In this document: piece by piece, positions 7,600 to 48,424 of the stretch
How positions within the stretch are numbered: the stretch's first letter is position 1
Layout: each line of letters starts with the position of its first letter
The notes under the pieces: model-generated
Databases searched by the model: none
Seen by the model: the letters and a program-made list of their open reading frames with translations, nothing else
Told to the model about the DNA's origin: nothing
Source: an uncultured Thermoleophilia bacterium
GTDB lineage: Bacteria > Actinomycetota > Thermoleophilia > UBA2241
NCBI GenBank assembly: GCA_963831295.1
Contig: CAWHPR010000002.1
Location: forward strand, 162,011-226,010
DNA length: 64,000 nt
Reading direction: 5' to 3'
Translations under genes and position numbers: made by a program

Positions 7600-7613
7600 T
7601 CGCTGGGTGGTGC

Positions 7614-13017: not shown

Positions 13018-14690
<1,673 letters not shown>

Positions 14691-21779: not shown

Positions 21780-21945
21780 CGCGATACCCCTCACGACCCC
21801 GGAACGAGTAGACTCGCTCGGGGTCGCCCCCCCTTTGTTCGACCGCGCACGCGGAGTGCGCCGGCGCCGGCGCATCAGTGCCGGAGCGACTACTATACAC
21901 CGCAGACGCCACGGCGTTAAGAGGAGGAGCGAGACGCGACCGACG

Positions 21946-23610
21946 GTGTCCCCATCGATCGTCTGACGGAGCCGGAAGGCCGCGCCGGGCGGCCCGGACC
22001 GCCGGAGGCCGGCGGGCCGGCGGGCCGCCGCCGACGCCTGCTGTGGGCCGGCCTCGTCGTCGTCCTCCTCCTCTCCGCCGCGCTGCGCCTCTACAACCTC
22101 GACTCGCCCCCCGAGCACATGTTCGACGAGGTCTACTACGCCAAGGACGCCCGGGCGCTCATCGACGGCCGCATGGAGGGCAAGCCGGGGTACGCATGGG
22201 AGCCCGGCGACGTGGTCTCGTGGCCGCACCCCGACGCCGGCAAGATGGCGATCGCGCTGGGGATCCTCGTGGCCGGCGACGACCCGGTCGGCTGGCGCCT
22301 CCCGTCGGTCGTCGCCGGCCTCGTCCTGCTCGGCAGCGTCTACCCTCTCGCGCGCCGCCTCGGACTGAGCGCGGGCTGGGCGTTCGTGGCCCTCATGCTC
22401 GCCGGCGCCGACCTGCTCGGCATCGCCCAGTCGCGGATCGCCACGCTCGACGTCTTCGTGGCCGCGTGGACCGCGCTCGGCGTGCTCTTCGCGTTGCGCT
22501 ACGTGCAGGAGGGCCGCCACACTCGCTGGCTCGCGCTCAGCGGCCTCGCCGGCGGCCTCGCCGTGGCGACCAAGTGGTCGGGCGCGCTCGCCCTCGTCGC
22601 CGCCGTCGCGATCGTCGTGCTCGCGCCGCAGCTGCGTGAGCTCCGCCCCGGAGGCCGGACGCGCGGCCGGGAGGCCGGCGAAGAGGGCGAGGCGCGCGAG
22701 GGCGCCGGCCGGCCGGCCGGCGCCCTCGCCGCGCCTCGCCGCCACGCTCGGCCTGCTCGCGCTGTGTCTCGCCGTGCTGCCGGGCGCGGTCTACCTTGCG
22801 AGCTACGTGCCGTACTTCGCCAACGGCCACTCGGTCGCCGAGTTCCGCGAGCTGCACAGCCAGATGCTGCACTTCAACTTCACGCTGTCGGCGCCGCACT
22901 CGTACGCCTCGACGGCGCCCACCTGGATCCTCGACTACCGCCCGGTGTGGTACTCCTTCCGCGAGATCCAGGGCCAGTTCCACGGGGTGGTCGCCATCGG
23001 CAACCCGCTGCTGTGGTGGGGGAGCATCCTCGCGCTGGTCGCGGCGCCGGTGCTGGCGCTGCGGCAGCGCAGCTCGACGCCGGCGCTGACCGCGCTGCTG
23101 ATCGTGATCCTCTACCTGCCGTGGTTCGCGACCACGCGCACGTCGTTCCTCTACTACATGGCGCCGGTGGCGCCGTTCCTCGCGATCCTGGTGGCCGCCG
23201 TGGCCGCCGACCTCGTCGACGGCGGCCGGAGGCGCGCCGGCGCCGAACTCGGCGCCGAGCCGCCCGCGGCGCGGCGCACGCTGCCGTGGAGGATCGCCGC
23301 GGTCGCGACGGCCGCGGTGGCGACGGCTCTCTTCTGGTACCCGTTCGCCCGGGCCGCGGAAGTCCTCTTCTGGGAGCTGCCCGGTCGCGTCTCGGGCGGC
23401 CTTGCCTGGACGGTCGCGATCGCGGGGGTCGCGGCGGTGTCCGTGGTCGCGCTCCTCGCGCTCGCCTCACGACGGCTGCGGCCGTGGGTCGTCCTCGTGC
23501 TGCTGGGCGCGATGCTGGGGATCGCCGTGCCCTTCCTCCCCATCGTGCTCGACGTGGGCATCCCGCGGGAGGAGTTCTACCGGCTCATGTGGTTCCGCAG
23601 CTGGATCTGA
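21946..23610 (+). CDS. Dolichyl/polyprenyl-phosphate-mannose--protein O-mannosyltransferase (GT39-like), with apparent frameshifts near 21950 and 22645
   Basis: FDEVYYAKDA, HPDAGK, GWRLPS, SRIATLD and ATKWSG in one frame. HSYAS..W...RPVWY, GNPLLWW and FLYYMAP in another frame. GAGGAGG lies at 21921-21927. Confidence 0.85.
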
Positions 23611-23620: not shown

Positions 23621-24583
23621 TCAGCGGATCACGGCCGCCATGATCGCCTTCTGCGCGTGCAGGCGGTTCTCGGCCTGGTCGAACACGACCGAGTGCGGCG
23701 AGTACAGCACCTCTTCGGTGATCTCCTCACCCCAGTGGGCCGGCAGGCAGTGCATGACCTTGACCTGCGGACCGGCGCGCCGCACGAGGTCCATGTTCAC
23801 CTGGTAGGCCTCGAGGGCGGCCAGCCGCGCGTCGTGCTCGGCCTCCTGCCCCATGCTCGTGAAGGTGTCGGTGTAGATCACGTCGGCGCCCTCGACGGCG
23901 GCCTGCAGGTCGCTGGTCAGCTCGATGGTGGCGCCGGTCGCCTGCGCATCGGCGCGTGCGCGCTCGACGATCGCCGCGTCTGGCCGGAAGCCGTCGGGCG
24001 TGCAGATGACGACGTGCATGCCGGTCTTGGCGCCGACCTCGGCGAGCGAGTGCGCGACGTTGTTGCCGTCGCCCGAGAAGACCAGCTTCTTGCCGGCGAG
24101 GTCGCCGCAGTGCTCGCGCACGGTCATCGCGTCCGCCATCCCCTGACACGGGTGGTGAGCGTCGGTCAGGCCGTTGATCACCGGGATCTGGCCGTAGGCG
24201 GCGAGGTCCTCGACGTCTTCGTGGGCGAAGGTGCGGATCATGATGCAGTCGACGTAGCGGCTCATCACGTTGGCGGTGTCCCTGATGGTCTCGCCTACGC
24301 GCAGCTGGATGTCGTTGGCGTTGAGGAACATCGGCTGCGCGCCGAGCTGCTCGATGCCGACCTCGAAGCTCATGCGTGTGCGGGTCGAGGTCTTCATGAA
24401 GATCATCGCCACGGCGCGCCCCTCGAGCACGCGATGCGGCGCGCGGCGCTTCTGGGCGTCCTTGAGCGCGCCGGCGAGGTCGAGGAGCGAGAGCACCTCG
24501 GCCGGGCTGTAGTCGTGGATGGTCAGAAAGCTGCGACCCGTGAGGTCGAGCTCGGAGAGGCGGCGCTTGACGATCTCGGGCAT
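23621..24583 (-). CDS. argF: Ornithine carbamoyltransferase
   Basis: STRTR, HPCQ, SMG, MHCLP, QAENRLH. Confidence 0.96.
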   Translation of the reverse strand: MPEIVKRRLSELDLTGRSFLTIHDYSPAEVLSLLDLAGALKDAQKRRAPHRVLEGRAVAMIFMKTSTRTRMSFEVGIEQLGAQPMFLNANDIQLRVGETIRDTANVMSRYVDCIMIRTFAHEDVEDLAAYGQIPVINGLTDAHHPCQGMADAMTVREHCGDLAGKKLVFSGDGNNVAHSLAEVGAKTGMHVVICTPDGFRPDAAIVERARADAQATGATIELTSDLQAAVEGADVIYTDTFTSMGQEAEHDARLAALEAYQVNMDLVRRAGPQVKVMHCLPAHWGEEITEEVLYSPHSVVFDQAENRLHAQKAIMAAVIR

Positions 24584-24628
24584 GTGATCCCTCTTTCGGA
24601 CGGTCGACGGGTGCAGTCTATCGAAAAC

Positions 24629-24663
24629 GCGGGCGGGCCGGGCGTCACGCCCGGCCCGCCCGC
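24629..24663 (-). terminator. Intrinsic terminator after the arginine-synthetase-like gene
   Basis: GCGGGCGGGCCGGGCG-TCA-CGCCCGGCCCGCCCGC, followed by GTTTTCG on the minus strand. Confidence 0.7.
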
Positions 24664-24682
24664 ACGCGTCCTTCGGCCCGAC

Positions 24683-26005
24683 TCAGATGAAGCCGCGCTC
24701 GCCGAGCACGTCGGCGAGCGTCGGGTGACCGATCTCCTGCAGGTCGTACTTGACCTGCACGGCCGGCAGCTTGATGTCGATGATCCGCCGCAGGTCCATC
24801 GGCGTGCCGATGACGACCAGGTCGGCGCCGGAGGTGTTGATGGTCGTCTCGAGGTCCTTGAGCTGCTGCTCCGAGTAGCCCATGGCCGGCAGCAGCACGC
24901 CGACGTTCGGGTACTTCTCGAAGGTCGCCTTGATCTCGCCGACGGCGAACGGCCGCGGGTCGACGAACTCGGCGGCGCCGAGCTGCCGCGCGGCCACCGT
25001 GCCGGCGCCGTACTTCATCTCGCCGTGGGTCAGCGTGGGGCCATCCTCGACGACGAGGACCTTCTTGCCCTGCACGAGCTCGGGCTTGTCGACCGTGACC
25101 GGCGAGGCGCCCATGACGATGCGCGCCGTCGGGTTGACCGAGCGCACCGCCTCGAGCTCGGCCTCGATGCCGGCACGATCGGCCGAGTCGACCTTGTTGA
25201 GCACGACCACGTCGGCCAGGCGCAGGTTGACCTCGCCCGGGTAGTAGACGAGGCCGTCGCCCGGCCGGTGCGGGTCGGCGACGGTGATGTAGAGGTCGGC
25301 CTTGTAGAAGCTGAAGTCGTTGTTGCCGCCGTCCCAGAGGATGACGTCGGCCTCCTTCTCGGCCTCGCGCACGATGGCCTCGTAGTCGACGCCGGCGTAG
25401 ATCACGTTGCCGGCCACGACGTGCGGCTCGTACTCCTCCATCTCCTCGATCGTGCACTCGTGCTTGGCCAAGTCCTCGACGGTGGCGTAGCGCTGCACGC
25501 GCTGCTTCACGAGGTCGCCGTACGGCATGGGATGACGGATGCTCACGACCTTCTTGCCGGCCGCGCGCAACATGGTCTGGATCTTGCGCGTCGTCTGGCT
25601 CTTGCCGGCGCCCGTGCGCACGGCGCAGACGGCGATCACCGGCTTCGTGCTCTTCACCATGACGTGGTCGGGGCCGAGCAGGCGGAAGTCGGCGCCGAGA
25701 GCGTTCACGATCGCCGAGCGGTGCATGACGTACTCGTAGGGCACGTCGGAGTAGGCGAACACGACCTGCTCGACGCCGTGCTGCTTGACCAGGGCGGGCA
25801 TCTCGGACTCGTCGTGGATCGGGATGCCGTCCGGGTACAGGCTGCCGGCGAGCTCCGCCGGGTACTTGCGGTCGTCGATGTAGGGGATCTGGGTGGCGGT
25901 GAAGGCCACGACCTCGTACGTGTCGTTGTCGCGGAAGTACGTGTTGAAGTTGTGGAAGTCGCGCCCGGCGGCTCCCATGATCAGGACTTTCGTTCGCTCG
26001 GCCAT
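24683..26005 (-). CDS. Arginine synthetase (ArcE)-like / cyclic 2,3-diphosphoglycerate synthetase family P-loop enzyme
   Basis: MGAAGRDFHNFN, AVRTGAGKSQT P-loop, RHPMPYGDL, WDGGNND, VEDGPTLTHG; adjacent to OTCase. Confidence 0.85.
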   Translation of the reverse strand: MAERTKVLIMGAAGRDFHNFNTYFRDNDTYEVVAFTATQIPYIDDRKYPAELAGSLYPDGIPIHDESEMPALVKQHGVEQVVFAYSDVPYEYVMHRSAIVNALGADFRLLGPDHVMVKSTKPVIAVCAVRTGAGKSQTTRKIQTMLRAAGKKVVSIRHPMPYGDLVKQRVQRYATVEDLAKHECTIEEMEEYEPHVVAGNVIYAGVDYEAIVREAEKEADVILWDGGNNDFSFYKADLYITVADPHRPGDGLVYYPGEVNLRLADVVVLNKVDSADRAGIEAELEAVRSVNPTARIVMGASPVTVDKPELVQGKKVLVVEDGPTLTHGEMKYGAGTVAARQLGAAEFVDPRPFAVGEIKATFEKYPNVGVLLPAMGYSEQQLKDLETTINTSGADLVVIGTPMDLRRIIDIKLPAVQVKYDLQEIGHPTLADVLGERGFI

Positions 26006-26049
26006 GCTCACTCCTGTGATCAGAGGTCCCTCCGCGCCACGATCCGATG

Positions 26050-27120
26050 TCAGGCCTGCGGAGTGAACACCTTGTGGACGTACGGTGACGTGGACAGCTG
26101 CACGGTGGCAGCGTAGTTGGGACGGAAGCGCAGGGCCTGCCCGAGCCGCGGCGGCGCGGGCATGGCCTCGACGTCGACGATGAGGTGGTCGCTCGAGGCG
26201 CCGAGGATCTCGACCCCCGGGTCGAGCGGCGTGATCCACTCGGCCATGACGTCTTGACGGCCCAGGGCGAGGATCGCGCGCCGACGCTCGCCGCGGTCCT
26301 CGAAGGCCGGCCGGTTGCCGTAGGCGTCCTGGGCGACCTCACCACGCGGCAGGCTCGGCTTGACCCTGCACTCGATCACCGGGGCGGCGAGCTCGAAGAC
26401 GTCGGCGTGCAGGCCAGCGACGGGCTCGCGCGTGAGCGTGTCGACGCCGTGCAGGATCGTCTCGCCGACGCGCAGCGTGGTGACGCCGGCCGGCATGCAG
26501 CCGGAGGCGATCATGCCGATCGAGCCCGAGTTGCCGCCGCCGACCAGCAGGCGGCGGCCGACGCGGCGCTCGGTCTCGCGGGCGAGAGCGACGAGCTCGC
26601 CCATATTGCGTTCGTCGGGCATCACCGCACCGTAGCAGGTGAGGTTGACCCCTATGCCGGCGAGCTCGACGTGCTCGAGCGCCTCGACGGCGTCGACGAA
26701 GGCCGGCAGATCGGCCGGCATGAGGCCCTCGCGCAGGTCGCCGAGGTCGACCATGACGAGCACCTGGTGACGGCGCCCGAGGGCAGCGGCCGCGGCGTCG
26801 AGCGCCGCGCAGGTCTCGAGCTCGCTGGCGAGCGAGAGGTCGAAGAGGCGCACGGTCTCGGCCGCCCGCTCGGGCGCCGGGGTGCGCAGCAGCCAGAGCG
26901 GCGCCTCGATCCCCGCCGCGCGCAGCCGCTCGGCGTTCTCGTGCCGCGACTCGCCGAGCGCGACCGCGCCGCCGGCGAGCAGCGCCCGGCCGACCTCGGG
27001 GGCGCCGCACGTGCACTTGGTGACGGCGACGACCTCGACGCCCGCAAGCATGCCCGCCACGGCGCGCGCGTTGGCGGTGATCTTCTCGAGGTCAACGTTC
27101 AGCGTGGCGTAGGCGGTCAT
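26050..27120 (-). CDS. orr: Alanine/ornithine racemase family PLP enzyme (probable ornithine racemase)
   Basis: VAVTK, LMVDLGDLREG, NLTCYG, GGNS, LGRQD, GASSDH; clustered with ora/ort/ord. Confidence 0.85.
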   Translation of the reverse strand: MTAYATLNVDLEKITANARAVAGMLAGVEVVAVTKCTCGAPEVGRALLAGGAVALGESRHENAERLRAAGIEAPLWLLRTPAPERAAETVRLFDLSLASELETCAALDAAAAALGRRHQVLVMVDLGDLREGLMPADLPAFVDAVEALEHVELAGIGVNLTCYGAVMPDERNMGELVALARETERRVGRRLLVGGGNSGSIGMIASGCMPAGVTTLRVGETILHGVDTLTREPVAGLHADVFELAAPVIECRVKPSLPRGEVAQDAYGNRPAFEDRGERRRAILALGRQDVMAEWITPLDPGVEILGASSDHLIVDVEAMPAPPRLGQALRFRPNYAATVQLSTSPYVHKVFTPQA

Positions 27121-27158
27121 GGGCCTCCCGGCGGCAGCGGCGCGGCAAGCCGCGCCGC

Positions 27159-27175
27159 TGCATAAGACGTATGCA
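27159..27175. promoter_or_regulatory. Candidate operator palindrome TGCATA-N5-TATGCA upstream of orr
   Basis: AT-rich inverted repeat 39 nt upstream of the orr start; 13/17 identical to 37813-37829. Confidence 0.55.
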
Positions 27176-27180
27176 GGACT

Positions 27181-28251
27181 CTATCGGGCTCGCGCCCGGG
27201 CGCGCAAGTCACTCCCTCGTTCACCGCCGGCCGGCAGTCGCCCGACGTTCCACAGATAGACTCCGCTCGCGAGGGCGAGCTTCTGCGCGTATCCCCCAAG
27301 GGTCAGCATGCCGTCGGCTTCGCCGCGGAAGCAGTACCAGCAGCCCTGGCAGGCCTCGACCTCCTCCCTGACGGCGGGCGAGCGCAGCGCCGCGAGCCCG
27401 GCCTCGAGGACGTGCCCGACGCGAGGCAGGTCCACGCAGGGGTGGATACCGCCGTACGGATCCACGCTGAAGTACTTGCGACCGGCATGGCAATCCCTCG
27501 GCCGCTCCTGCTCGTCGAAAGCGCCCATTCTCTCGAGATACCGCCTCGTGTTCAGCAGGACGCCACGCCGCCGCGGATGGTCGAGCAGATCCTCCACAGC
27601 CCGGCGGATACACTCGGGCGCCAGGTCGTCGTCCACACGACGGTGGTGCGGCTGCACGACAAGACGGACGCCGGCGCCGGCGGCGAGGTCGACGAGCTGC
27701 GGAAGGCCACGCTCGTTCCGCCGCGTCACCACCGTCATGATCCCCGCAGTGCGGCAGCCGCCGACGAAGCCGTCCCCCAACAGACGCACGGCGACGAGCG
27801 TCCGCTCGTAGGCGCCCTCGACGCCACGCTGGCCGTCGTGCACGACCGGGTCGGCGGCGTCCAGTGAGACGAAGAGGTTGTGCAGACCCGCTTCCCTCAG
27901 ACCGCGCACCCGCGAACGGTCGAGCGACAGCCCGTTGGTGACGAGCGACACCCACATGCCCCGTCTCGCGGCATGCGCGACGATGGCCTCGAGATCGTCC
28001 CGCAATGTCGGCTCGCCACCGGTGAAGTTGACGGCTCGGCACCCGGCCTCGGCCACGCGCTCGAGACCGCGGCACACCTCCTCGGTCGTCTGCTCATCGG
28101 CGACGGGCGCGTCCCGCCTCCAGTAGCCACACATCGCACACCGGGCGTCACAGCGGTAGGTGAGCTCCCAGAGGCAATTCAGGAAGCTGCGCTCCCTGGC
28201 CGCGGCCCGCGTCAGCCGCATGGCCAGAGCCAGGCCCCTCGTCAGGTCCAT
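27181..28251 (-). CDS. Radical SAM protein with a C-terminal SPASM/twitch-like cysteine domain
   Basis: CDARCAMC, FTGGEP, VTNG, VSLD; C-terminal CHAGR...IHPC...CQGCWYC. Start may instead be at 28272. Confidence 0.88.
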   Translation of the reverse strand: MDLTRGLALAMRLTRAAARERSFLNCLWELTYRCDARCAMCGYWRRDAPVADEQTTEEVCRGLERVAEAGCRAVNFTGGEPTLRDDLEAIVAHAARRGMWVSLVTNGLSLDRSRVRGLREAGLHNLFVSLDAADPVVHDGQRGVEGAYERTLVAVRLLGDGFVGGCRTAGIMTVVTRRNERGLPQLVDLAAGAGVRLVVQPHHRRVDDDLAPECIRRAVEDLLDHPRRRGVLLNTRRYLERMGAFDEQERPRDCHAGRKYFSVDPYGGIHPCVDLPRVGHVLEAGLAALRSPAVREEVEACQGCWYCFRGEADGMLTLGGYAQKLALASGVYLWNVGRLPAGGERGSDLRARARAR

Positions 28252-28336
28252 GCAGACGCCACTGGTCTCCATGCCGCCAGTGCATCACACCCGGCGGCGC
28301 GGGCGCCAGCGGGTCATCGCGCCGTTGCCTCGGCGC

Positions 28337-29539
28337 TCAGTTGACGTTGTAGCTCAGCAGGAAGTCGTACCAGCCGACGCCGATCGGGACCGGCTGGGCG
28401 AACGCCACGTCGGCGAACGGGTCGCCGTAGTACTTCCAGTCGCCCACGTTGCCCCACCAGATGGTGAGACCGGTGGCGCCCTCCGTCCAGCGCGTGGTGT
28501 GCGTGTCGACGACGGCCGCCGAGACCGCCTCGGCGACGGCGGCGCTCGAGGCGCCCACGTCGCTGCCCGCGAGCGCGGGGTCGGCCGCCAGCCGCTCGCA
28601 CAGGCCGACCAGGTCGTACTGCCTGGTCGACGTCGCCCTCCAGGTCTTGATGAGCGCCTTCTTGTAGATCAGCTCGTTGGCGGGCATGCCCGCCGCCAGT
28701 CCGGCGGCCCAGCTCTGCAGCGCCGCTTTCGCGGCGCCGATCTCACGCACGTCGACCGCCGAGAGACAGACCGCCTTGGCCCACGTCAGCGGGTCGTAGT
28801 ACTGACCCCAGCCGTCGACCATGTCGACGAGCAACTGCTCGGGCGAGCGTGACGGGTCGCCGATCAACGGCGTAAGCATCAGGTCGTAGGCGTAGCCGTC
28901 GAGCGGCACCATCTCCTCGGAGGCGACCATGTAGTCGACCATCCCGGTGAGAGCCAGCTCGTAGGCCACCGCGATGTCCCCCATGGCGCAGGCGTCGAAG
29001 GCGAGGACGTCGATCGGCGTCGCGGCACCAACGAGTGCCGCGTTGAGCTCGGCCATCGTGATGCGGTCGCCACCGGACGAGTCGTCACTGCACACGTAGC
29101 GCCAGGCGTAGCCGTGATCCCACATGGTGACCGCGAGATGCGTCGCCGGATAGCGCGTCGCCACCTCCTCGACGAACCACTCGAAGGTCGTGCCCTCGCC
29201 CGTGTTCAGCTCCGGGAACTCTGCCACGACCGCCTGCTCGCCGCCCTCGAACTCGATGAGCTCGGTGCCCACGGTGCTGAGGCGGTCGACCATCGCGACG
29301 ATGTGCACGTTCGCGCTCGCCGGGATGCGCAGCAGCGCCGGGAGGTTGATGTCGTCCCAGGACGACTCGAGGTTGTTGTCGGCGGCGACGTAGATGGCGA
29401 ACGTCCAGTCGGCCGTCACGTCGCCGGTCGTGTCGGCGCTCGCCGTCGCCGGCGCGACGAGCAGCGCGAGCAGCAGAACTGCGAACAGCGCCGCCGTGCC
29501 CGCCCGCGCGGATGCCGGCCGTCGGGCCTGTGACCTCAT
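28337..29539 (-). CDS. Secreted clostripain-family (C11) cysteine peptidase, copy 1
   Basis: Signal peptide; WTFAIYVAADNNLE, WDHGYAW (His), FDACAMG (Cys), ASEE. Confidence 0.9.
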   Translation of the reverse strand: MRSQARRPASARAGTAALFAVLLLALLVAPATASADTTGDVTADWTFAIYVAADNNLESSWDDINLPALLRIPASANVHIVAMVDRLSTVGTELIEFEGGEQAVVAEFPELNTGEGTTFEWFVEEVATRYPATHLAVTMWDHGYAWRYVCSDDSSGGDRITMAELNAALVGAATPIDVLAFDACAMGDIAVAYELALTGMVDYMVASEEMVPLDGYAYDLMLTPLIGDPSRSPEQLLVDMVDGWGQYYDPLTWAKAVCLSAVDVREIGAAKAALQSWAAGLAAGMPANELIYKKALIKTWRATSTRQYDLVGLCERLAADPALAGSDVGASSAAVAEAVSAAVVDTHTTRWTEGATGLTIWWGNVGDWKYYGDPFADVAFAQPVPIGVGWYDFLLSYNVN

Positions 29540-29611
29540 GACGATACCCCCCTGGGTCGTGTGTGCGGCGGGCGCGGCGGCCGTACGGCCGCCGCGCCCG
29601 CCGCCCTTCAC

Positions 29612-30808
29612 TCAGTTCGCGTAGTAGGTCTGCAGCAGGTCGTACCAGCCCACGCCGACCGGCGCCGGCTGGGCGAAGGCCGTGTTGGCGCCGAACAGCG
29701 CCTCGTAGGACGCCCAGTCACCGGCGTTGGCCCACCACACGGCGATACCCGTGGCGCCGGCCGTCCAGCGCGTCGTGTGATTGGCGATCACGGCGCCCCT
29801 CATCGCCTCGGCGACGGCGACGGTCGCCGTCTTCAGCTTCATCCCGTCGGCCTTCTTGAGGTCGGGGTCGAGCGCCAGCCGGTCGCAGAAGCTGATGAAG
29901 TCGTACTGCCAGCTGTTCAGCGCCGTCCACGTCTTGACCAGCGCCATCTTGTAGTCCTGCTTGAAGAGCGGCACGCCCGCGGTCATGCGCTGCACCCACG
30001 TCTGCAGGGCCGGGATCGCCGCGCGCACCTCGCGCACGTCGATCGCCGACAGGCACACCATCGTGTAGCCGCCCACGCCGTCGTAGTACGCGCCCCAGCC
30101 GTCGACCATGTCGGCGGCGACCTGCTCGGGCGTGCGGCCGGGCTCGAGCGCCACCGGCGCCAGCATCAGGTCGTAGGCGAAACCCGCGAAGGGGATCATC
30201 TCCTCGGAGGCGACCATGATGTCGACCACTCCGCTGAGGGCGACCTCGTACGCGACCGCCATGTCGGCCATGTTGCAGGCGTCGAAGGCGAGGATGTCGA
30301 TCGGCACCCCGGCAGCGGCGATGGAAGCCCGCAGCTCGGGCATCGTGATGCGGTCCTTGGCTGAGGAGTCGTCGTAGCAGATGCCGCGCCAGGCGCCGCC
30401 GTGGTCCCACAGGTCGACGGCGAGGTGCTCGGAGGGGTACTCCGCGGCCAGGTACTCGACGAACCACTGCAGGTTCGCCCCGTCGCCGAAGTCCATCTCC
30501 TCATACGTGTCGACGACCGTGGCCACGCCGCCCTCGAACTCGATCAGCTCCGTGGTCGTCGTGCTGAGCCGGTCGACCAGGGCGATGATGTGCACGTCCT
30601 CGCTCTCCGGGATGCCCAGCAGCGCGGGGACGTTGATGTCGTCCCAGGCAGACTCGAGGTTGTTGTCGGCGGCGATGTAGAGGCCGAACGTCCACTCGGC
30701 CTCGTCGACTGCGAACGCCGGCGCCGCGAAGACGGCGAGCAGCGCCACCACCGTCAACGCCGTGAGGCAGAGCCGGGCGCAGTGCGACCCGCGTGCGTGG
30801 GATGTCAT
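29612..30808 (-). CDS. Secreted clostripain-family (C11) cysteine peptidase, copy 2
   Basis: Signal peptide ending in AFA; WTFGLYIAADNNLE, WDHGGAW, FDACNMA, ASEE. Confidence 0.9.
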   Translation of the reverse strand: MTSHARGSHCARLCLTALTVVALLAVFAAPAFAVDEAEWTFGLYIAADNNLESAWDDINVPALLGIPESEDVHIIALVDRLSTTTTELIEFEGGVATVVDTYEEMDFGDGANLQWFVEYLAAEYPSEHLAVDLWDHGGAWRGICYDDSSAKDRITMPELRASIAAAGVPIDILAFDACNMADMAVAYEVALSGVVDIMVASEEMIPFAGFAYDLMLAPVALEPGRTPEQVAADMVDGWGAYYDGVGGYTMVCLSAIDVREVRAAIPALQTWVQRMTAGVPLFKQDYKMALVKTWTALNSWQYDFISFCDRLALDPDLKKADGMKLKTATVAVAEAMRGAVIANHTTRWTAGATGIAVWWANAGDWASYEALFGANTAFAQPAPVGVGWYDLLQTYYAN

Positions 30809-31012
30809 GACGGTCCCCCCCATATCTCGTGGTCGCGCCGGACCAGTCGAGACGCGCACGGCGACCCCCCCAGGCCGCCGGCAGGGCCCCTTCGCCGACG
30901 CTCGTCACGGGCTATCGTACGCCCTTCACCGCAGGGGTCAACGACCAGCTGCTCCGCCGCTTCAGGGCCGCCCTCGGCTCGAGGGTCGAGGGACGACGAG
31001 CGGGTCGGCGCG

Positions 31013-32365
31013 TCAGATGCCGGCGCTGCCGCGCATGAGCGCGACGACGGCGCCGGCGTCGAAGTGCGCGAACAGCGCGCCGCAACAGGCGAAGATGTAG
31101 TCGCCGTCGAGCACGATGCGCGCGTCGGACGGCGGCAGCAGGCGATCGCCGCCGTTCTTGGCCCGCGTGTCGGCAAGGACGGCCTCGCCGCCGGGCAGGC
31201 GCGTGAGCGCCCCGCCGGTCCCGATCACGAGACGGCAGGCGGTGAGGTCGCGGCCGCGGGCCACCGTCTGGCGACCGGTCGGCGTGTAGAGGTGCGCGAG
31301 CTCGCCGGCGTGGCGCTGCATCGCGGTGACGGCGGCGAAGTGGGTCAGCGTGAGCGCCGCCTCGACCTCCTCGGAGGTGGTCGGCAACGGCGGCGGAAGC
31401 TGCTGGGGCCGCTGCTGCCGGGCGAGCATCTCGACGACGTGCACCGCGCTCACGTAGGTGCCGAGGTCGCCCTCGACCGTGCGCTTGCTGTGCGGCTGCG
31501 GGTCGACCTGGATCGCGCTCAGCTCGGGGCTGCCGTCGGTGATCGAATGGACGTCCGTGGTGGCGCCGCCGACGTCGACGACGACGAGGTCCCCGACGTC
31601 GGCGGCCAGCCGCTCAGCGGCGATCAACACCGCGCCCGGCGTCGGCAGGATGCGACCGGTCACGACCTCGCCGATGCGCTCCATGCCGGGGGCGTGCGTG
31701 ATGTGCTCCTCGAAGGCGTCGTGGATCACCGCGCGGGCCGGCACGATGTCGAGCTCGTCGATCCCCGGGTAGACGTTGTTGGTCAGCTTGACCGTGAAGC
31801 CCGCGGCCTCGAGCAATCCCCGAGCATCGGCGGAGACGACCGAGTTGCCCGCGTACACGACGATCGGGCGCGCCTCGAGCTCGGTGAGACGCGCGGCGTT
31901 GAACAGCACCGTGTCGCAGTCCCCGCCCTCGACGCCGCCGGCGAGCAGGACCAGGTTGGGGCGCTCCTCGGCGACGCGGCGCAGGTCGTGGTCGCGCAGA
32001 CGACCGGCCGTCTGGTACTTCACGACCGCGCCGGCACCCAGCGCGGCCTCGCGCGCCGCCATCGCCGTCATCCGCTGCGTGAGGCCGTGCACGGTCATGC
32101 GGAGGCCGCCGGCCGCCGAGCTGGTCGCCAGCGTCAGGCGTGGCGCGAGCGGCCCGGAGGCCGCCTCCAGCCGCGCCCGGGCGGAGTTCACGCCGATGGT
32201 CACGTCCCCGTCGGCGACAGACGTGGCGGCGACGCCCTGCCCGACGAGGCAGGGCGTCGCCGTGGGGTACTCGCTCAGCCCGTCGAAGGCCGAGACGACG
32301 GTCGTCGTCGAGCCGATCTCGGCGACGAGCGCGTCGACGGGGCGTGGCTCATCGTGCGCCGGCAC
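31013..32365 (-). CDS. GlmL/MutL-family aminomutase reactivating factor
   Basis: AEIGSTTT, ATSSAAGGL, LAGGVEGG, DVGGATTDVHS, KRTVEGDLG; directly downstream of oraE. Confidence 0.9.
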   Translation of the reverse strand: MPAHDEPRPVDALVAEIGSTTTVVSAFDGLSEYPTATPCLVGQGVAATSVADGDVTIGVNSARARLEAASGPLAPRLTLATSSAAGGLRMTVHGLTQRMTAMAAREAALGAGAVVKYQTAGRLRDHDLRRVAEERPNLVLLAGGVEGGDCDTVLFNAARLTELEARPIVVYAGNSVVSADARGLLEAAGFTVKLTNNVYPGIDELDIVPARAVIHDAFEEHITHAPGMERIGEVVTGRILPTPGAVLIAAERLAADVGDLVVVDVGGATTDVHSITDGSPELSAIQVDPQPHSKRTVEGDLGTYVSAVHVVEMLARQQRPQQLPPPLPTTSEEVEAALTLTHFAAVTAMQRHAGELAHLYTPTGRQTVARGRDLTACRLVIGTGGALTRLPGGEAVLADTRAKNGGDRLLPPSDARIVLDGDYIFACCGALFAHFDAGAVVALMRGSAGI

Positions 32366-32372
32366 CCGCGCC

Positions 32373-34631
32373 TCACATCCCCCGCTCGCGCATCGTCTCG
32401 ACGATGAACGAGGCCACCTGGAGGCCCTTGGCGCCGCGGCCGAAGCCGGCGTCCATGCCCCAGCTCCGCGCCAGCTCGCCGGTGACCTGCGTGCCGCCGG
32501 AGATGAGCAGGAGCCTGTCGCGGACACCCTTCTCGACCGCCAGGTCGGCGAGCTTCTCCATGTTGCTGCGGTGCATGTCGCCGTGAGTGATGATGGTCGA
32601 GATGAGGACGATCTGGGCGGCGTGCTCGATGGCCGCGTCGAGGACCTTCTCGACCGGCACCGAGGTGCCCAGGTGCTCGCAGGCGAAGCCCCACTTCTCG
32701 AGGCCGCCGTGCTTGATGTCGATGATCTCGCGCATGCCCACCGAGTGCTCGTCCTGGCCGACCGTGGCGGCCACGCACTTGAGCCCCTTCTCGACGACGA
32801 AGGCTTTGATCTCCTCGTCGCTGATGACGACGGGCTCAGGCGGGATCACGAGCCGGGCCGGGTCGACGACGGCGTCCAGCCGGCCCTTCATCTCGATGAG
32901 GGTGCCCTCCGCCGGGTGCATGACCTGGCGATTGATGACCTCGCAGTCCTGCAGGTTCATCGCCTTGCCGAACTCGAGAGCGGCGGCCTCGGCGACGCGT
33001 CGCTCGGCCGGAAGGAAGAGCGTGACCACGACCCAGCCGTCGGCGGCCCACTCGACCTCCGGCTTGATGAGACCCTTCTCGCGGAGCTCAGCGGTCTGGG
33101 CCAGGCGTGCGTTGACGTTGTCCTCGGGGTCGAGCTCGTCGATGAACGGCACCTTGCCGGGGTCGCACAGCGTGCAGCCGCCGATCAGGTCGCAGGGCTT
33201 CTGCGATGCGGGGCCGGCTTCGCCGCCCGCCCCGCCGGACGGGACCGCCCCGCCCGCCGGCTCGCCGTACCCATCCGGCAGGTGGTTGTCACCGAAGTGG
33301 TGGCAGACCGGCGCGAGGTAGTCGGCGGCGCGCTCGACGATGGTCCCGGCGGCCACGCCCCCGTCGCTCTGGCGGGCGATGCCGTCGTCGTGGGTCTCCG
33401 GGTACTCGCCGGAATCGACGAAGTACGCCTGCTCGACGGCGGCGAAGTAGCCGCCGTCCGCGAGCATCGCCTCGAGGAAGAGGACGGCGCGCTCCTTGAG
33501 CTCGCGGATCTTGCCCTTGAGCTCGGGGGCGTCGCGGTCGACCTTGACCATCTCGCGCAGGCCGTCCATGCCCACGAGTGACTGCTTGGCCGTGTTCACG
33601 GCCGCGACGTTGTTGTAGTGCCACGGCACGTTGCGGCCCTCGTCGGGGGTGATGGTGCTCTGGATGTCGGCGCTCGTGAGCCGGCTGATCATGAGGTTCA
33701 TGACGTGACTCACGGTCGCGTCGCGCCCGTCGGACTCCATGTAGCGCGTGTTCTGCTGGGCGCGCATCTTGTACTCGCCGAAGAGATCGCGGAGGGCGAC
33801 CGCATAGGGCAGGTCCATGCGCATGCAGGGCGCCGGCGCCGCGTCGGGCGGCACCGTCGAGAGGCAGATGTCCTCCTTGGGCATGCCGGCGGCGACCGAG
33901 TAGGCGCAGTTGACGGCGTGCTGGACGAGGAGTTCGGGCATCACGTTCCACGCTTCGACGGCGGTGGCGTTGGCGTTGTGCGCGCCGTCGATCTGCGCCA
34001 TGCGCACGCTGGCCATCACGTGCTTCGCCACCGCCGCGTCGACGAAGCTGCGATACATGTTGATGTTCCGGTAGAGGACGTTGTACTGCGGGTCCTGGTG
34101 GGCCCCGTTCACGCCCTCCTCGGCGAACATCACGGCCATCTCGGGGCCGGCGACGCCGCTCACGTAGCTGTGGAAGTTGATCGGCCGGCCCACCTCGTCC
34201 TCGATGAGGTCCAGCGCCTTACGCGTGGCGCGCACCTGCTTGCGGGTCACGGCGATACCGCCGACGCCCTCGGGGGTGCCCTCGAGCAGACCGTCCATGT
34301 GGCTCTGCCCGGCCGTGCGGATCACCATCATGTGATCGGCGCCGTGCCAGGCCGCCATGCGCATGCGGCGGATGTCGTCCTCGAAGCGCCCGCTGGCGAT
34401 CTCGGTCGTGACCACGCAGTCGGGCTGCGGGTCGATGAAGTCGAAGTAGTGGGCCGCCGGCAGCGGGATGCTGTTCGTGACGCCCTTCGAGGTCTCCTTG
34501 AAGACGAACTTGTGGAGCTTCTGGTCGGGCACCTGCTCGCGCCAGTGCCAGCCGCGGCGTCGCGGACGGTACTCCGCGATGCCGTCGAGGAGGGCGGCGA
34601 CATCGAGCTTCTCGTTGGGATCGAGCTTCAT
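32373..34631 (-). CDS. oraE: D-ornithine 4,5-aminomutase, large subunit (B12/PLP)
   Basis: EIASGRFEDDIRRMRMAAWHGADH, B12 motif DEHSVG, PLP lysine in IIDIKHGG. Confidence 0.95.
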   Translation of the reverse strand: MKLDPNEKLDVAALLDGIAEYRPRRRGWHWREQVPDQKLHKFVFKETSKGVTNSIPLPAAHYFDFIDPQPDCVVTTEIASGRFEDDIRRMRMAAWHGADHMMVIRTAGQSHMDGLLEGTPEGVGGIAVTRKQVRATRKALDLIEDEVGRPINFHSYVSGVAGPEMAVMFAEEGVNGAHQDPQYNVLYRNINMYRSFVDAAVAKHVMASVRMAQIDGAHNANATAVEAWNVMPELLVQHAVNCAYSVAAGMPKEDICLSTVPPDAAPAPCMRMDLPYAVALRDLFGEYKMRAQQNTRYMESDGRDATVSHVMNLMISRLTSADIQSTITPDEGRNVPWHYNNVAAVNTAKQSLVGMDGLREMVKVDRDAPELKGKIRELKERAVLFLEAMLADGGYFAAVEQAYFVDSGEYPETHDDGIARQSDGGVAAGTIVERAADYLAPVCHHFGDNHLPDGYGEPAGGAVPSGGAGGEAGPASQKPCDLIGGCTLCDPGKVPFIDELDPEDNVNARLAQTAELREKGLIKPEVEWAADGWVVVTLFLPAERRVAEAAALEFGKAMNLQDCEVINRQVMHPAEGTLIEMKGRLDAVVDPARLVIPPEPVVISDEEIKAFVVEKGLKCVAATVGQDEHSVGMREIIDIKHGGLEKWGFACEHLGTSVPVEKVLDAAIEHAAQIVLISTIITHGDMHRSNMEKLADLAVEKGVRDRLLLISGGTQVTGELARSWGMDAGFGRGAKGLQVASFIVETMRERGM

Positions 34632-34990
34632 ACCGCCCCTCCCCACTTCTGCTCGACGAGATCCCAGCCCTCGCCGGCGACGAGCCGGCGCGCGGCCTCG
34701 GGCGCGGTCAGGCCCTCCTGGTTCGCGTAGTACCAGACGACATGCCCACAGCCGTGCCCCAGCAGGCCGCGCTTCTCGCACTCGGCGACCACGGCGACGC
34801 AGGTCGGTGAGTCGATGGCCATGCGCATCAGTACCGAACGCTCGATCGAGGGCGAGGTGTGGGTGCGCGCGAGCTCGACCAGCGGGTCCACGACCTGCCG
34901 GGACAGCTCCCAGAAGCGCGCCTCGAGCTCCTCGTCCGAGAGGCCGGCGAGATGCCCGCGGATCTCGAGGTAGGTGTCCTCGCGGGCCAT
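34628..34990 (-). CDS. oraS: D-ornithine 4,5-aminomutase, small subunit
   Basis: LSDEELEARFWEL, HTSPSIERSVLMRM, LLGHG; overlaps the oraE start. Confidence 0.93.
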   Translation of the reverse strand: MAREDTYLEIRGHLAGLSDEELEARFWELSRQVVDPLVELARTHTSPSIERSVLMRMAIDSPTCVAVVAECEKRGLLGHGCGHVVWYYANQEGLTAPEAARRLVAGEGWDLVEQKWGGAV

Positions 34991-34991
34991 C

Positions 34992-36404
34992 TCAGACCTC
35001 CCCCAGCTCTCCGACGATCGCCTCGACGGCGGCCGCGTCACTGTTCGTGTCGGCCGCCAGGAAGGCGATGTCGTCGGCGGTCGGCTGGTAGCCCGCGGGC
35101 GCGTTCTTGAGCGCGTTGCGGACGTAGCTCTTGCGCATGCGCGCGAGATCGAAGTCCTGGGCGCTGATCTGCTCGAGCGCCTCAGGGATCACGATGACCT
35201 TGCCGGGGACGTTGTCCTTCGGGTCGCCGGCACGGACCTCGACGCCCATCTCCTTGGCGAAGTTGAGCTGTGACCAGTGGTGTTTGCCGGCGCCCGTGTA
35301 CTCGGTCTCCTGCACGACGACAGTGGCGTCGCGCGGCAGTTCGCGGGCCAGGCTGACGGCGGCCGTCATCGCCGTGTTGCCGGCCGGGCCGCGCTCGAGG
35401 CCCTCGAGCTTGGCCATGGCCTCGGTGACGTAGAAGACCTCGCCCTGGGTGACGGTCAGATAGCGGTCGATGTAGCGTAGCGGCCGAGCGGCGTTGCGCG
35501 GCACGTCGGCGCGGTCGGGCCATGTCGCGAACGGCACGCCGAAGCCCGTGTGACCGGTCGTGAAGCTCTTGCGGTTGAAGTCGTCGTCGCTCGCCATGTG
35601 CAGGCCGCTGAGGTCGACCGAGGCGCTGACGATCTCCGTGCCGGACGCGCCGGCGCGCTGCAGGCCGCGGGCGGTGCCGGTCGTGTTGCCGCCGCCGGCG
35701 TGGGTGACCACGCAGTGCGTCGGCGGCGCCCCGGTGAGCGCCGTCATCTCGTGGGCGATCTCGAGGCCGAGGGTCTCGATGCCGCTGACGCCGAACGAGC
35801 TGTAGAGCGAGGCGGCGAAGTAACCGGTCTCGTCGAGCAGCTCGACCATGTGGAAGAAGAGCTCGGGACCGACGGTCATCTGCACGACCTCCGCCCCGTA
35901 CGACTCGCAGACCCGGCCCTTCTCGACGATCTCGGGCTGGCCGACGTGGCGACTGTCGAAGGTCTCCTGGCAGATGATGCACTTGAGGCCGTTGCGCGCC
36001 GCCTGGCTGGCGACGGCGGCTCCGTAGTTGCCCGACGTCGCCGCGATCACGCCCTCGTAGCCCTTCTCCTTGGCAACGTGGATGCTCACGCTGGCGCGGC
36101 GGTCCTTGAAGGCTCCCGCGAGGTTCGCGGCCTCGTCCTTGACGAAGATGCGCGCGCCCTTGCCGGGTTCGCTGATGCTGCGCACCAGGTCGGTCAGGTT
36201 CCTGAGCTCGAGCAGCGGCGTGCTCCCGACGCCGGCGCGCGCCTGGATACCGGCGATATCATCGAGGTTGTAGCCGTGCGCCGTCATCATGCCCTCGTAG
36301 TCGAAGGCGACGGGGCTCTGTTCGAAGACGCTGTAGTCCATGCCCAGCGCCTGGCGCATGATCTCGCCGCGGCGCGCCATGATGGCGTCGAACTTGGTGG
36401 CCAT
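34992..36404 (-). CDS. ortB: 2-amino-4-ketopentanoate thiolase, beta subunit (PLP)
   Basis: KDEAANLAGAFKDRRAS, ATSGNYGAAVASQAA, HAGGGN, QETEYTGAGKH. Confidence 0.93.
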   Translation of the reverse strand: MATKFDAIMARRGEIMRQALGMDYSVFEQSPVAFDYEGMMTAHGYNLDDIAGIQARAGVGSTPLLELRNLTDLVRSISEPGKGARIFVKDEAANLAGAFKDRRASVSIHVAKEKGYEGVIAATSGNYGAAVASQAARNGLKCIICQETFDSRHVGQPEIVEKGRVCESYGAEVVQMTVGPELFFHMVELLDETGYFAASLYSSFGVSGIETLGLEIAHEMTALTGAPPTHCVVTHAGGGNTTGTARGLQRAGASGTEIVSASVDLSGLHMASDDDFNRKSFTTGHTGFGVPFATWPDRADVPRNAARPLRYIDRYLTVTQGEVFYVTEAMAKLEGLERGPAGNTAMTAAVSLARELPRDATVVVQETEYTGAGKHHWSQLNFAKEMGVEVRAGDPKDNVPGKVIVIPEALEQISAQDFDLARMRKSYVRNALKNAPAGYQPTADDIAFLAADTNSDAAAVEAIVGELGEV

Positions 36405-36745
36405 CAGCGCTCACCGCCTTCGGCGGCCCGGTAGGCCGCGAGTCGGGCGCGCAGGTCGCGGCCCACGTGGGTGAGCTCCGGGATCGGCGCCCCATACGTG
36501 ATGTAGTAGCCGGGGTTCACCGCCGAGAGCGCTCCGGTCACGCGACGGCCGGTGATCGTCTCGACGGTCAACTCCTCGCCCATGCCCGCTTCGTCCTGGG
36601 CGAACCCCTTCACCCACATCATCAACGGCTTCTCCGCCGTCTCCGGCGGCAGGTTCTTGCTGCGGTCGGCCGGGTCGAGCAGCCTGCACTCGACCTCGAC
36701 CCAGTCGCCCTCTCGGGCGCGGATGGCGTCGGTCAACGCGGTCAC
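36404..36745 (-). CDS. ortA: 2-amino-4-ketopentanoate thiolase, alpha subunit
   Basis: GDWVE...LPPETAEKPLMMWVKGF...TITGR...NPGY...G.PIPEL. Confidence 0.92.
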   Translation of the reverse strand: MTALTDAIRAREGDWVEVECRLLDPADRSKNLPPETAEKPLMMWVKGFAQDEAGMGEELTVETITGRRVTGALSAVNPGYYITYGAPIPELTHVGRDLRARLAAYRAAEGGER

Positions 36746-36776
36746 CCCTCTCAGGTGGTCGGCGTCCGGTCGGGGG

Positions 36777-37787
36777 TCAGACGCTCGGCGTCCAGAAGCG
36801 CGGCAGCGGCATGTCCACCACGGTGAGCATGCCGGCCGGAGCGTCCTTCATCAGCGGGATGTAGTTGCCGGTGCTGGCGTAGGTGCCCTTGCCGCCCGGG
36901 ATCTCGGGCTTGTTGGACATGTTGACGTCAGGGTCGCCGTGGATCTCGATGTAGTCGCCGGTCTCCTGACCCTCGAGCTCGGGGTGGATCTGCTGGGGGT
37001 GGATGAGCTCGATCTTGAGCTCGTCGCCCGAGTAGCCGCGACCGATGTGGCGGCAGCCGGCGACGTCCCCGGGAGCCACGTGCACGTGCGCCGTGGCACG
37101 CTCGACCCTGGTGACGATGGGCTCACGCGTCTCCTCGATGCGGTCGATCGTCCAGCCCAGCGCGCGGGCGATGAGGTTGATGCTCTCAGGGAAGCCGATG
37201 TGCCCGACGATGCTGCCGTCGGCGACGCCCTTCTCGAACTGCTCGACGGTGGTGCCGACGCCCTGGCCGGTCATCACCGTAGGGCCGAACGGCGAGAGGT
37301 CGTTGACGCGCGTCGCGACGATCCTGTCGACGCGCAGGCAGATGGAGCTCCACATGACGATGAGGGCGTCCAACATGAAGCCGGGATTGATGCCGGTGCC
37401 GAGGACGGAGACGCCGTGCTCCTTGGCGAGCGCGTCGATGCGCTCGCCCCAGGCGGCGTCGCTCGCCCACGGATAGCTGATCTTCTCGGCGATGCAGATC
37501 ACGTTGCAGCCGGCCTCGATCGCCGGCACGACCTGGTCGGTGATCTCGTGCAGGTTGCTCTGCGTGTTGATGCAGACGACGTCCGGCTTCTCGGCCAGCA
37601 CGCTCGCGAAGTCGGTGGTCATCCTGACGTCGCACGGTCGGTCGAGCAGCTCGCCGACCGTCTTCCCCTCCTTGGCGGGATTGGTCACGATCACGCCGAC
37701 GAGGTCGATGTCCCTGGGCCGGTCGAGGATGAAGCGCAGGAGACCCTGCCCCATCATGCCGGTGCCCCACTCAGCGACTCGAATCAT
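36777..37787 (-). CDS. ord: 2,4-diaminopentanoate dehydrogenase
   Basis: WGTGMMG Rossmann motif, LGTGINPGF, VNDLSPFGPTVM..QGVG, GHIGFPES. GAGGAGGAG RBS. Confidence 0.93.
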   Translation of the reverse strand: MIRVAEWGTGMMGQGLLRFILDRPRDIDLVGVIVTNPAKEGKTVGELLDRPCDVRMTTDFASVLAEKPDVVCINTQSNLHEITDQVVPAIEAGCNVICIAEKISYPWASDAAWGERIDALAKEHGVSVLGTGINPGFMLDALIVMWSSICLRVDRIVATRVNDLSPFGPTVMTGQGVGTTVEQFEKGVADGSIVGHIGFPESINLIARALGWTIDRIEETREPIVTRVERATAHVHVAPGDVAGCRHIGRGYSGDELKIELIHPQQIHPELEGQETGDYIEIHGDPDVNMSNKPEIPGGKGTYASTGNYIPLMKDAPAGMLTVVDMPLPRFWTPSV

Positions 37788-38066: not shown

Positions 38067-38095
38067 ATGCTACGTGCTGGACCCGGGGTGGTCAA
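38067..38095 (-). promoter_or_regulatory. Putative sigma70 promoter of the ord operon
   Basis: TTGACC-17 nt-TAGCAT on the minus strand. Confidence 0.55.
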
Positions 38096-48419: not shown

Positions 48420-48424
48420 ACCTT

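Follow-up and report, generated by a model that had tools for sequence, protein, structure and literature searches.

A gene block of an uncultured Thermoleophilia bacterium that probably serves arginine fermentation to acetyl-CoA, joining an ArcE-like enzyme to B12-dependent ornithine degradation

Why would an uncultured bacterium keep a gene of the arginine synthetase (ArcE) family beside the genes of oxidative ornithine degradation? This question is raised by twelve genes, all on the minus strand, at positions 23621-37787 of a stretch of 64,000 nucleotides (hereafter the window) from an uncultured Thermoleophilia bacterium (GenBank assembly GCA_963831295.1, contig CAWHPR010000002.1, positions 162,011 to 226,010; G000:C2:162011-226010 in our numbering). 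The source genome, G000, comprises 1.73 Mb on 4 contigs and is 57% complete, and its DNA has a GC content of ~70%. The block consists of two conserved modules, ord-ortA-ortB-oraS-oraE-or4 (module A) and orr-arcE-OTC (module B, in which OTC stands for ornithine carbamoyltransferase), and is probably an arginine-to-acetyl-CoA fermentation locus built from them. A previous sequence-only reading had described here one co-oriented block of ~14 kb with an ord-ortA-ortB-oraS-oraE-reactivase series, two C11 peptidases, a radical S-adenosylmethionine (SAM) enzyme, a racemase, an ArcE-like enzyme and an ornithine carbamoyltransferase, and all of these were confirmed at the same places, all but the ArcE-like enzyme with Pfam or NCBIfam models. 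The order of transcription is ord, ortA, ortB, oraS, oraE, or4, C11 b, C11 a, radical SAM, orr, arcE, OTC. In the following lines, scores are bits against Pfam or NCBIfam models, given with the model cut-offs, and likely start codons are those with purine-rich upstream stretches, which shorten several maximal open reading frames (ORFs).

23621-24583, minus strand: ornithine carbamoyltransferase (OTC, arcB/argF type), 320 amino acids; TIGR00658 427.7 bits, cut-off 280.85; PF00185, PF02729
24683-26005, minus strand: ArcE-like P-loop enzyme (arginine synthetase family), 440 amino acids; matches no Pfam or NCBIfam model
26050-27120, minus strand: Orr-like racemase dependent on pyridoxal phosphate (PLP), probable ornithine racemase, 356 amino acids; NF040742 350 bits, cut-off 480; PF01168
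27181-28272, minus strand: radical SAM/SPASM protein, 363 amino acids; PF04055 83 bits
28337-29539, minus strand: C11 (clostripain-family) peptidase a; likely ATG at 29539, maximal ORF to 29611; PF03415 131.7 bits
29612-30808, minus strand: C11 peptidase b; maximal ORF to 30859; PF03415 135.2 bits
30914-30941, minus strand: promoter-like site between or4 and the C11 genes; TTGACC, 16 nucleotides, TACGAT; 9 of 12 positions, a pattern match only
31013-32365, minus strand: Or-4, GlmL-related, presumed mutase accessory or reactivase; likely GTG at 32365, maximal ORF to 32527; PF13941 443 bits; NF040744 518 bits, cut-off 600
32373-34631, minus strand: OraE, D-ornithine 4,5-aminomutase large subunit (B12, PLP); maximal ORF to 34781; NF040743 1281.7 bits, cut-off 800; PF09043, PF16554, PF02310
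34628-34990, minus strand: OraS, D-ornithine 4,5-aminomutase small subunit; likely ATG at 34990, maximal ORF to 35041; PF16552 136.5 bits, cut-off 29.7
34992-36404, minus strand: OrtB, 2-amino-4-oxopentanoate thiolase beta subunit; NF040741 783 bits, cut-off 550
36404-36745, minus strand: OrtA, 2-amino-4-oxopentanoate thiolase alpha subunit; NF040739 103 bits, cut-off 70
36777-37787, minus strand: Ord, 2,4-diaminopentanoate dehydrogenase; maximal ORF to 37802; NF040740 445 bits, cut-off 400
38067-38095, minus strand: promoter-like site upstream of ord; TTGACC, 17 nucleotides, TAGCAT; 9 of 12 positions, a pattern match only

Taken together, the predicted functions would form a continuous route. 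From arginine, ADP and phosphate, the ArcE-like enzyme would form citrulline, ammonia and ATP; OTC would then use phosphate to cleave citrulline to L-ornithine and carbamoyl phosphate, from which a carbamate kinase encoded ~210 kb away would, with ADP, yield a second ATP together with CO2 and ammonia. L-ornithine would be racemized to D-ornithine by Orr and converted to 2,4-diaminopentanoate by OraSE, with Or-4 as a helper, through the shift of an amino group; Ord would oxidize this product to 2-amino-4-oxopentanoate, which OrtAB would cleave with coenzyme A to acetyl-CoA and alanine. By draining ornithine, the B12-dependent branch would pull forward both the near-equilibrium ArcE reaction and the unfavourable phosphorolysis of citrulline by OTC. 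The equilibrium constant given for ArcE is 10.1 at 80°C in the direction of citrulline, ammonia and ATP (PMC11032458; this paper and PMC13260591 are cited from excerpts throughout). The conversion of arginine through citrulline, ornithine and D-ornithine to acetyl-CoA would be the simplest reading of a gene order that is kept in 16 related genomes. The same route had been proposed in the sequence-only reading; its gene order now gains weight from its conservation in these 16 relatives and from its recurrence in the genome G087 and in loci bearing arcC, the gene of carbamate kinase, whereas the direction of flux keeps the presumptive standing that it had before.

The assignment of the ArcE-like protein is supported at the level of the family. 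Over its full length, this protein is 49% identical to a homologue of Hyperthermus butylicus (E-value 9e-149) and 46% identical to one of Pyrodictium occultum, and both genera (Desulfurococcales) are named as arcE bearers in the published excerpt (PMC11032458). The same excerpt describes arcE homologues as widespread in bacteria, Actinomycetota included, as annotated in some cases as GTPases, as located in some cases near arcB or arcC, and as only weakly similar to homologues of cyclic 2,3-diphosphoglycerate (cDPG) synthase. The ArcE-like protein fits these traits in its taxa, labels, arcB/arcC neighbours and weak likeness to cDPG synthase. This is illustrated by a phmmer comparison in which 112 residues were aligned with the cDPG synthetase 9sxb (E-value 8e-8); a profile of the ArcE family matched 9sxb with an E-value of 2e-19 and 8oru/8ork with an E-value of 2e-14, both partially, and the sequence match to cDPG synthetases spans ~110-150 residues only. 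An AlphaFold model of the protein (predicted local distance difference test 94, predicted template-modelling score 0.91) was best matched by Foldseek to the cDPG synthetase of Methanothermus fervidus (E-value 1.5e-16), with 15-16% identity and a template-modelling score of 0.41-0.46. Judged by this low and partial similarity, the ArcE-like protein is set apart from the true cDPG synthetases. It carries a P-loop, TGAGKS, at residues 131-136, in which G134 and K135 are nearly invariant among 28 diverse homologues. Relatives that are 83-90% identical carry the NCBI name ‘Thermoleophilia bacterium’, and the family is also labelled ‘predicted GTPase’.

The neighbours of ArcE homologues in other lineages point in the same direction. 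A scan of species-representative genomes returned 595 ArcE relatives, of which the best 80 loci, from many phyla and two archaea and with 63-70% identity, were examined. In these best 80 of 595, arcC adjoins the ArcE homologue in 26 loci and an OTC-like gene does so in 18, in line with the window, where OTC lies 99 bases downstream of arcE. In one representative of the family, P0129 (766 amino acids), a carbamate kinase (NF009007 314 bits, cut-off 266) and an ArcE-like domain are joined in a single chain. In another, P0235 (806 amino acids), the ArcE-like sequence is broken up by an intein that bears a LAGLIDADG domain. When 350 other genomes of the G000 phylum were sampled, 94 proved to have ArcE (84 of 340 without the ten ArcE-bearing genomes flagged as unpublished), and arcC adjoins arcE in five of the nine same-phylum loci L118-L126 (L118, L120, L122, L124 and L125). 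This adjacency of arcC and OTC ties the family to an arginine catabolism that yields carbamoyl phosphate, and not to B12 mutases generally. The family assignment made in the sequence-only reading is therefore borne out by the full-length identity to archaeal homologues, the partial matches to cDPG synthetases, the arcC neighbours and the arcC fusion, and by homology the protein is predicted to interconvert arginine, ADP and phosphate with citrulline, ammonia and ATP.

The same data bear on another role for this protein, namely that of a P-loop NTPase at the service of the B12 mutase, in the manner of MeaB-type G-proteins, or of an enzyme acting on another guanidino or ureido compound. Such a role could be sought in the label ‘predicted GTPase’, in the clustering with an adenosylcobalamin enzyme, in weak fold matches of the model to the G-domains of HypB, MeaB and IcmF (E-values 2e-4 to 4e-3) and in G087, where arcE directly follows or4 and neither OTC nor Orr is present. 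It is nevertheless very improbable, as mutases adjoin none of the best 80 of the 595 loci in which carbamate kinase and OTC recur and a fusion to arcC exists, 87 of the 94 other ArcE-bearing genomes of the phylum sample are without OraE, the aminomutase already has a GlmL-like helper, and an identity of 63-70% across phyla suggests one conserved function.

The question of whether arcE and ornithine degradation belong together was addressed through a survey of the co-localization of arcE, orr and oraE. Sixty relatives of G000 were searched for ArcE and OraE (61 genomes with G000 itself). ArcE matches were obtained in 33 of the 36 genomes that share the family of G000 (two matches being weak or fragmentary), in all five genomes of a second family and in one of five of a third, while OraE exceeded its cut-off in 28 of the 61 genomes, all within the family of G000. 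In 16 of the 60 relatives, again all of this family, arcE and oraE share a contig at a distance of 2.6-10 kb, in the order ord-ortA-ortB-oraS-oraE-or4, a variable stretch, and orr-arcE-OTC. The gene orr adjoins arcE in every relative's locus (17/17), and OTC does so in 15 of the 17, the other two being a locus cut by a contig end and a locus without OTC. In the genome G034, the orr-arcE-OTC trio is intact, yet 52 kb from ord-oraE; hence this trio is the stable unit. On this gene order, the racemase that would make the substrate of the mutase travels with the two arginine enzymes.

Outside this family, the phylum sample contained eight other genomes with OraE, of which seven also have ArcE, against a base rate of 94/350; as these genomes are kin, the comparison does not amount to a statistical test. 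One of the recurrences is G087, which belongs to another family (GC 31%) and reads ord-ortAB-oraSE-or4-arcE. From the side of OraE, 80 metagenome loci were examined, and ArcE was present in six of them, three of these being close relatives (L128, L130, L151) and three distant (L157, L174, L180). The distant loci read ord-ortA-ortB-oraS-oraE-or4-orr-arcC-OTC-arcE on one strand, with an OraE that is 63-66% identical and a GC content of 50-55%. Where at least 3 kb followed the last ornithine gene, ArcE occurred in 2/8 close and 3/25 distant OraE loci, so that most ornithine clusters are without ArcE. In one further locus, L198, ord is preceded by OTC-arcC, and no ArcE is encoded inside that locus. 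The survey thus found the link kept in the 16 relatives and recurring in G087 and in L157, L174 and L180.

The history of arcE in this group was approached with FastTree, a quick method, on 113 ArcE sequences with midpoint rooting, fragments covering fewer than 400 residues being excluded. The ArcE sequences of the family of G000 form one clade (support 100), those from the rest of its phylum and class form a separate clade (support 98), and the ArcE of G087 branches apart from both. Since the clade of the G000 family sits among sequences of other phyla, arcE could have entered this family by gene transfer. On the well-supported branches, the label ‘ornithine-linked’ needs at least two origins.

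What, then, is the part of the genes that stand between the two modules? The sequence-only reading had called the cluster protease-fed, and both C11 peptidases (55% identical to each other) have signal-peptide-like N-termini, the hydrophobic stretch of peptidase a ending in ATASA, and carry WDHG and FDAC motifs, which we take to be where the catalytic His and Cys of C11 enzymes are expected. C11 enzymes prefer Arg or Lys. Against the clostripain equivalog TIGR02806 the two proteins reach 33 and 39 bits (32.7 for a) for a cut-off of 550, while the cut-off of PF03415 (25.8) is passed; on these scores, they are members of C11 and not orthologues of clostripain. If they cut proteins after arginine and were matured or helped by the radical SAM enzyme, they might feed the pathway and the 14 kb would be one functional unit. 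This idea, to which the secretion-like N-termini, the motifs, the co-orientation with gaps of 60-200 bases and the retention of the pair at the junction in 6 of 13 genomes of the genus (with G000) lend something, is nonetheless unlikely. Neither the other seven members of the genus nor any other genus has the pair at the junction. Copies 86-93% identical adjoin OraE or ArcE only in G004, G006, G008, G010 and G011; the C11 genes found elsewhere have different locations and an identity of 37-50%. Moreover, an endopeptidase alone yields no free arginine, and the C11 genes are immediately preceded by a promoter-like site.

Of the 61 genomes searched, none but G000 itself gave a match to the radical SAM gene, and in G004 and G008 this gene is not present between C11 and orr; its product has a CxxxCxxC motif in the translation, its best NCBIfam matches are far under the cut-offs and the Atlas returned generic radical SAM/SPASM clusters only. 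This gene is probably a recent insertion. The or4/orr junction is occupied differently elsewhere: five genomes from three genera (G012, G016, G029, G032 and G033; L023, L026, L028, L030 and L031) have there an Lhr helicase of 1417-1580 amino acids (in two parts in G012) together with a Nei/Fpg glycosylase, both of them DNA-repair genes with no relation to the pathway, one genome (G015) has a glycosyltransferase and five have nothing. The junction thus accepts unrelated DNA and, judged from its contents, looks like a recurrent insertion point, which makes the adjacency of the C11 genes weak evidence of a shared function. Most probably, the C11 pair and the radical SAM gene were inserted in particular lineages and do not belong to the pathway, and the protease-fed element of the sequence-only reading is not supported.

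The signals within the block were also considered. The third-position GC of its ORFs is 0.85-0.95, as real genes should look in DNA of 70% GC. Overlaps of a few bases occur at ortA/ortB and at oraS/oraE, where the likely ATG of oraE at 34631 overlaps the oraS stop, and the other gaps measure 44-200 bases. Before the ATG of ord at 37787 stands GAGGAGGAG. Two promoter-like sites were found in the region for 0.6 expected. A search with Rfam at the gathering threshold returned no riboswitch or leader RNA in the block, the 345-base leader of ord included, and a search for terminator patterns gave two weak matches for 3.2 expected, none of them between the modules. Co-expression of the two modules may be presumed. 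Orr and Or-4, which score below their cut-offs, both align end to end with their models (350 of 351 positions of NF040742 for Orr).

The remaining functions of the route were sought in the rest of the genome. The sequence-only reading had noted that the window holds neither carbamate kinase nor arcA; this is so, and the sole strong arcC match of the genome (G000:C2:399924-400847) lies outside the window, ~210 kb from the block (TIGR00746 412 bits, cut-off 358; C2:399897-400889), within the following cluster:

G000:C2:397350-402023 (L001, L012): agmatine-deiminase-type cluster with an OTC-family paralogue, a permease-like ORF (identified by eye), arcC and aguA in two ORFs (253 and 209 bits)

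The OTC-family paralogue beside arcC scores 335 bits with the OTC model and 319 bits with the putrescine carbamoyltransferase model. An intact argH (470 bits) is present, argG reads in two frames (C2:430635-431808) and the best arcA match of this 57% complete genome reaches 35 bits only; G000 thus holds arcC, argG and argH, while arcA has no match above a weak level. A genome lacking both carbamate kinase and argGH, which the sequence-only reading had named as grounds for refutation, is therefore not the case here. Further genes of G000 that read in two or three frames are a third OTC paralogue (C3:122165-123071) and an Orr-like gene (C3:312984-314032). With several genes split in this way (argG, the OTC paralogue, the Orr-like gene and aguA) in an assembly of 4 contigs, indel errors are likelier than pseudogenes. 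For the fate of acetyl-CoA, no ackA was found in the 57% complete genome, and an ADP-forming acyl-CoA synthetase-like gene scores 311 bits for a cut-off of 567. Five good relatives have 2-8 OTC paralogues each, and arcC was found in four of the five, always beside another paralogue. Two of these relatives have arcA-like genes besides ArcE, with 467 and 430 bits for a cut-off of 489 (G033:C1:757786-760922 and G025:C1:722555-723793), the former in an arcA-OTC-arcC string; genomes with both arcA and arcE are described as rare in the available excerpt (PMC11032458).

Could the arginine enzymes of the block work in the opposite direction? ArcE and its adjacent OTC might be mainly synthetic, making arginine from ornithine through citrulline with ATP and free ammonia, in replacement or support of ArgG and ArgH, and their place in the locus would then reflect shared ornithine handling. 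According to the excerpt (PMC11032458), the ArcE reaction is reversible, and in Thermococcus kodakarensis the enzyme allowed arginine to be made from citrulline in vivo. In G000 and in all five relatives checked, the OTC beside arcE is the highest-scoring one, the argB-argG-argH cluster (C2:429-434 kb) is without an OTC of its own, and argG is in two frames; the arcE-OTC pair may therefore also serve synthesis. As the main function, this direction is unlikely: the partner that always adjoins arcE (17/17 loci) is a racemase feeding D-ornithine to the aminomutase, the distant loci put carbamate kinase in the same string, argH is intact, and the split of argG may be an assembly error, as aguA and an OTC paralogue are split too. 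The occurrence of ArcE is, moreover, complementary to that of arginine deiminase in the excerpts of both papers (PMC11032458, PMC13260591) and unrelated to that of argG and argH in one of them (PMC13260591).

Several further observations weigh against arginine fermentation through this block, together with the reversibility of ArcE and the features of OTC just given. The homology of the ArcE-like protein to the assayed enzyme TK2200 is indirect, passing through the homologues of Hyperthermus and Pyrodictium, and our literature search found no assay or physiological study of a bacterial ArcE homologue. Catabolic and anabolic use of OTC are not distinguishable by sequence, and both directions may occur. 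The modules are parted by unrelated genes in 11 of the 16 relatives' loci and contiguous in five; with the 52 kb of G034, this means that they need not form one operon. Two genomes that are 98% complete (G021 and G028) have ArcE and no OraE, and ornithine-degradation genes were found in none of the ArcE loci from other phyla (best 80 of 595). The only arcC found in G000 lies with aguA, the permease and the OTC paralogue, outside the arcE block, the absences of arcA and ackA from a genome that is 57% complete are weak evidence, and no arginine transporter was identified in the block. On balance, a fermentation of arginine to acetyl-CoA remains the probable function of the two modules.

How does this block compare with characterized systems? 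The oxidative L-ornithine cluster of Clostridium sticklandii and Clostridioides difficile reads ord-ortAB-oraSE-orr, and the conversion of arginine to ornithine and acetyl-CoA via arginine deiminase is classical in clostridia. The block has the same seven functions (Ord, OrtA, OrtB, OraS, OraE and, as probable assignments, a GlmL-like helper and Orr), four of them above the NCBIfam equivalog cut-offs. It differs in belonging to another phylum, in Orr and Or-4 being below the cut-offs, in the detachment of Orr from the mutase genes and its association with arcE-OTC, and in the arginine entry, which would proceed via ArcE instead of arginine deiminase; no regulator of the sigma-54 type and no NhaC-type transporter were seen in the block. 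Like the arcABC pathway, the predicted route would overall convert arginine to ornithine, ammonia and carbamoyl phosphate with OTC and carbamate kinase. Unlike in arcABC, energy would already be gained in the first step, so that the way to ornithine would yield two ATP and not one, and no arcA was found in G000. The M. fervidus cDPG synthetase (8ORK, 8ORU; also 9SXB) offers the best structural match, the only solved relative by sequence and a shared P-loop core; its similarity is partial and of low identity, whereas the gene context here is one of arginine and ornithine, and the protein is instead 49% identical to a crenarchaeal ArcE-type homologue.

In T. kodakarensis, the pathway consists of ArcE (TK2200), ArcB (TK0871) and ArcC (TK2158), and in both ArcE papers the enzyme was characterized in this archaeon only, ornithine being converted to proline and carbamoyl phosphate to pyrimidines (PMC11032458, PMC13260591). 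As in T. kodakarensis, arginine deiminase would be replaced in G000 by a P-loop enzyme of this family beside OTC, arcC is in the genome and arcA was not found; homologues of the T. kodakarensis family are likewise mislabelled as GTPase or cDPG synthase, according to the excerpt (PMC11032458). By contrast, the host is bacterial, arcC lies ~210 kb off in the agmatine-deiminase-type cluster, and the neighbouring genes point to racemization and B12-dependent oxidation of ornithine to acetyl-CoA instead of its conversion to proline.

The sequence-only reading had regarded the combination as undescribed in Actinomycetota. Our literature search did not find arcE described in association with ornithine aminomutase genes, although the supplementary neighbourhoods and trees of the ArcE paper (Figs S2B, S10 and S11), which lay outside the search, may show such neighbours; the presence of arcE as such is no novelty, as the excerpt already lists Actinomycetota among its bearers (PMC11032458). 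Both modules are thus already known, and it is their combination that suggests a physiological role for bacterial ArcE.

The surroundings of the block contain other genes of interest. On the minus strand, histidine utilization is represented by hutU (13014-14690) and hutH (15732-17318), which flank a GPR1/FUN34/YaaH-type channel; these nearby genes fit an amino-acid-degrading way of life. Just past the cluster, three paralogous proteins with signal-peptide-like N-termini are encoded on the minus strand (17448-18815, 18971-20282 and 20511-22745); they match no Pfam family, save for a weak CarboxypepD_reg match at one C-terminus, and the middle one seems to be split by a frameshift (19311-20282 and 18971-19348). 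Directly upstream of the cluster is a GGDEF protein (38133-39800), followed by an AddAB-like helicase-nuclease pair of 1170 and 1140 amino acids (39852-46773). The RNase P RNA (250 bits) and five tRNA genes are located at 48423-48800 and 7089-7690 of the window, on the minus strand.

A wider proposal would take the whole 14 kb as one protein-to-ATP unit in a sub-lineage of the genus, in which secreted, arginine-directed C11 peptidases would release arginine-ended peptides, ArcE, OTC and the distant carbamate kinase would provide two ATP per arginine, and the B12 pathway would lead to acetyl-CoA with a possible third ATP. More broadly, at least three lineages (the G000 family, G087 and the L157 type) would each have brought arcE and the ornithine genes together on their own, marking ArcE as a regular entry to arginine fermentation in uncultured anaerobes. 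We consider this proposal speculative and improbable.

The conserved and repeatedly evolved link of arcE to ornithine oxidation nevertheless provides a concrete, testable role for bacterial ArcE. If true, it would amount to a complete fermentation of arginine in which deimination itself yields ATP, with two ATP to ornithine in addition to the yield from acetyl-CoA. It would also correct the label of thousands of proteins now named ‘cyclic 2,3-diphosphoglycerate synthase’ or ‘predicted GTPase’, and it would add amino-acid fermentation to the picture of the uncultured Thermoleophilia.

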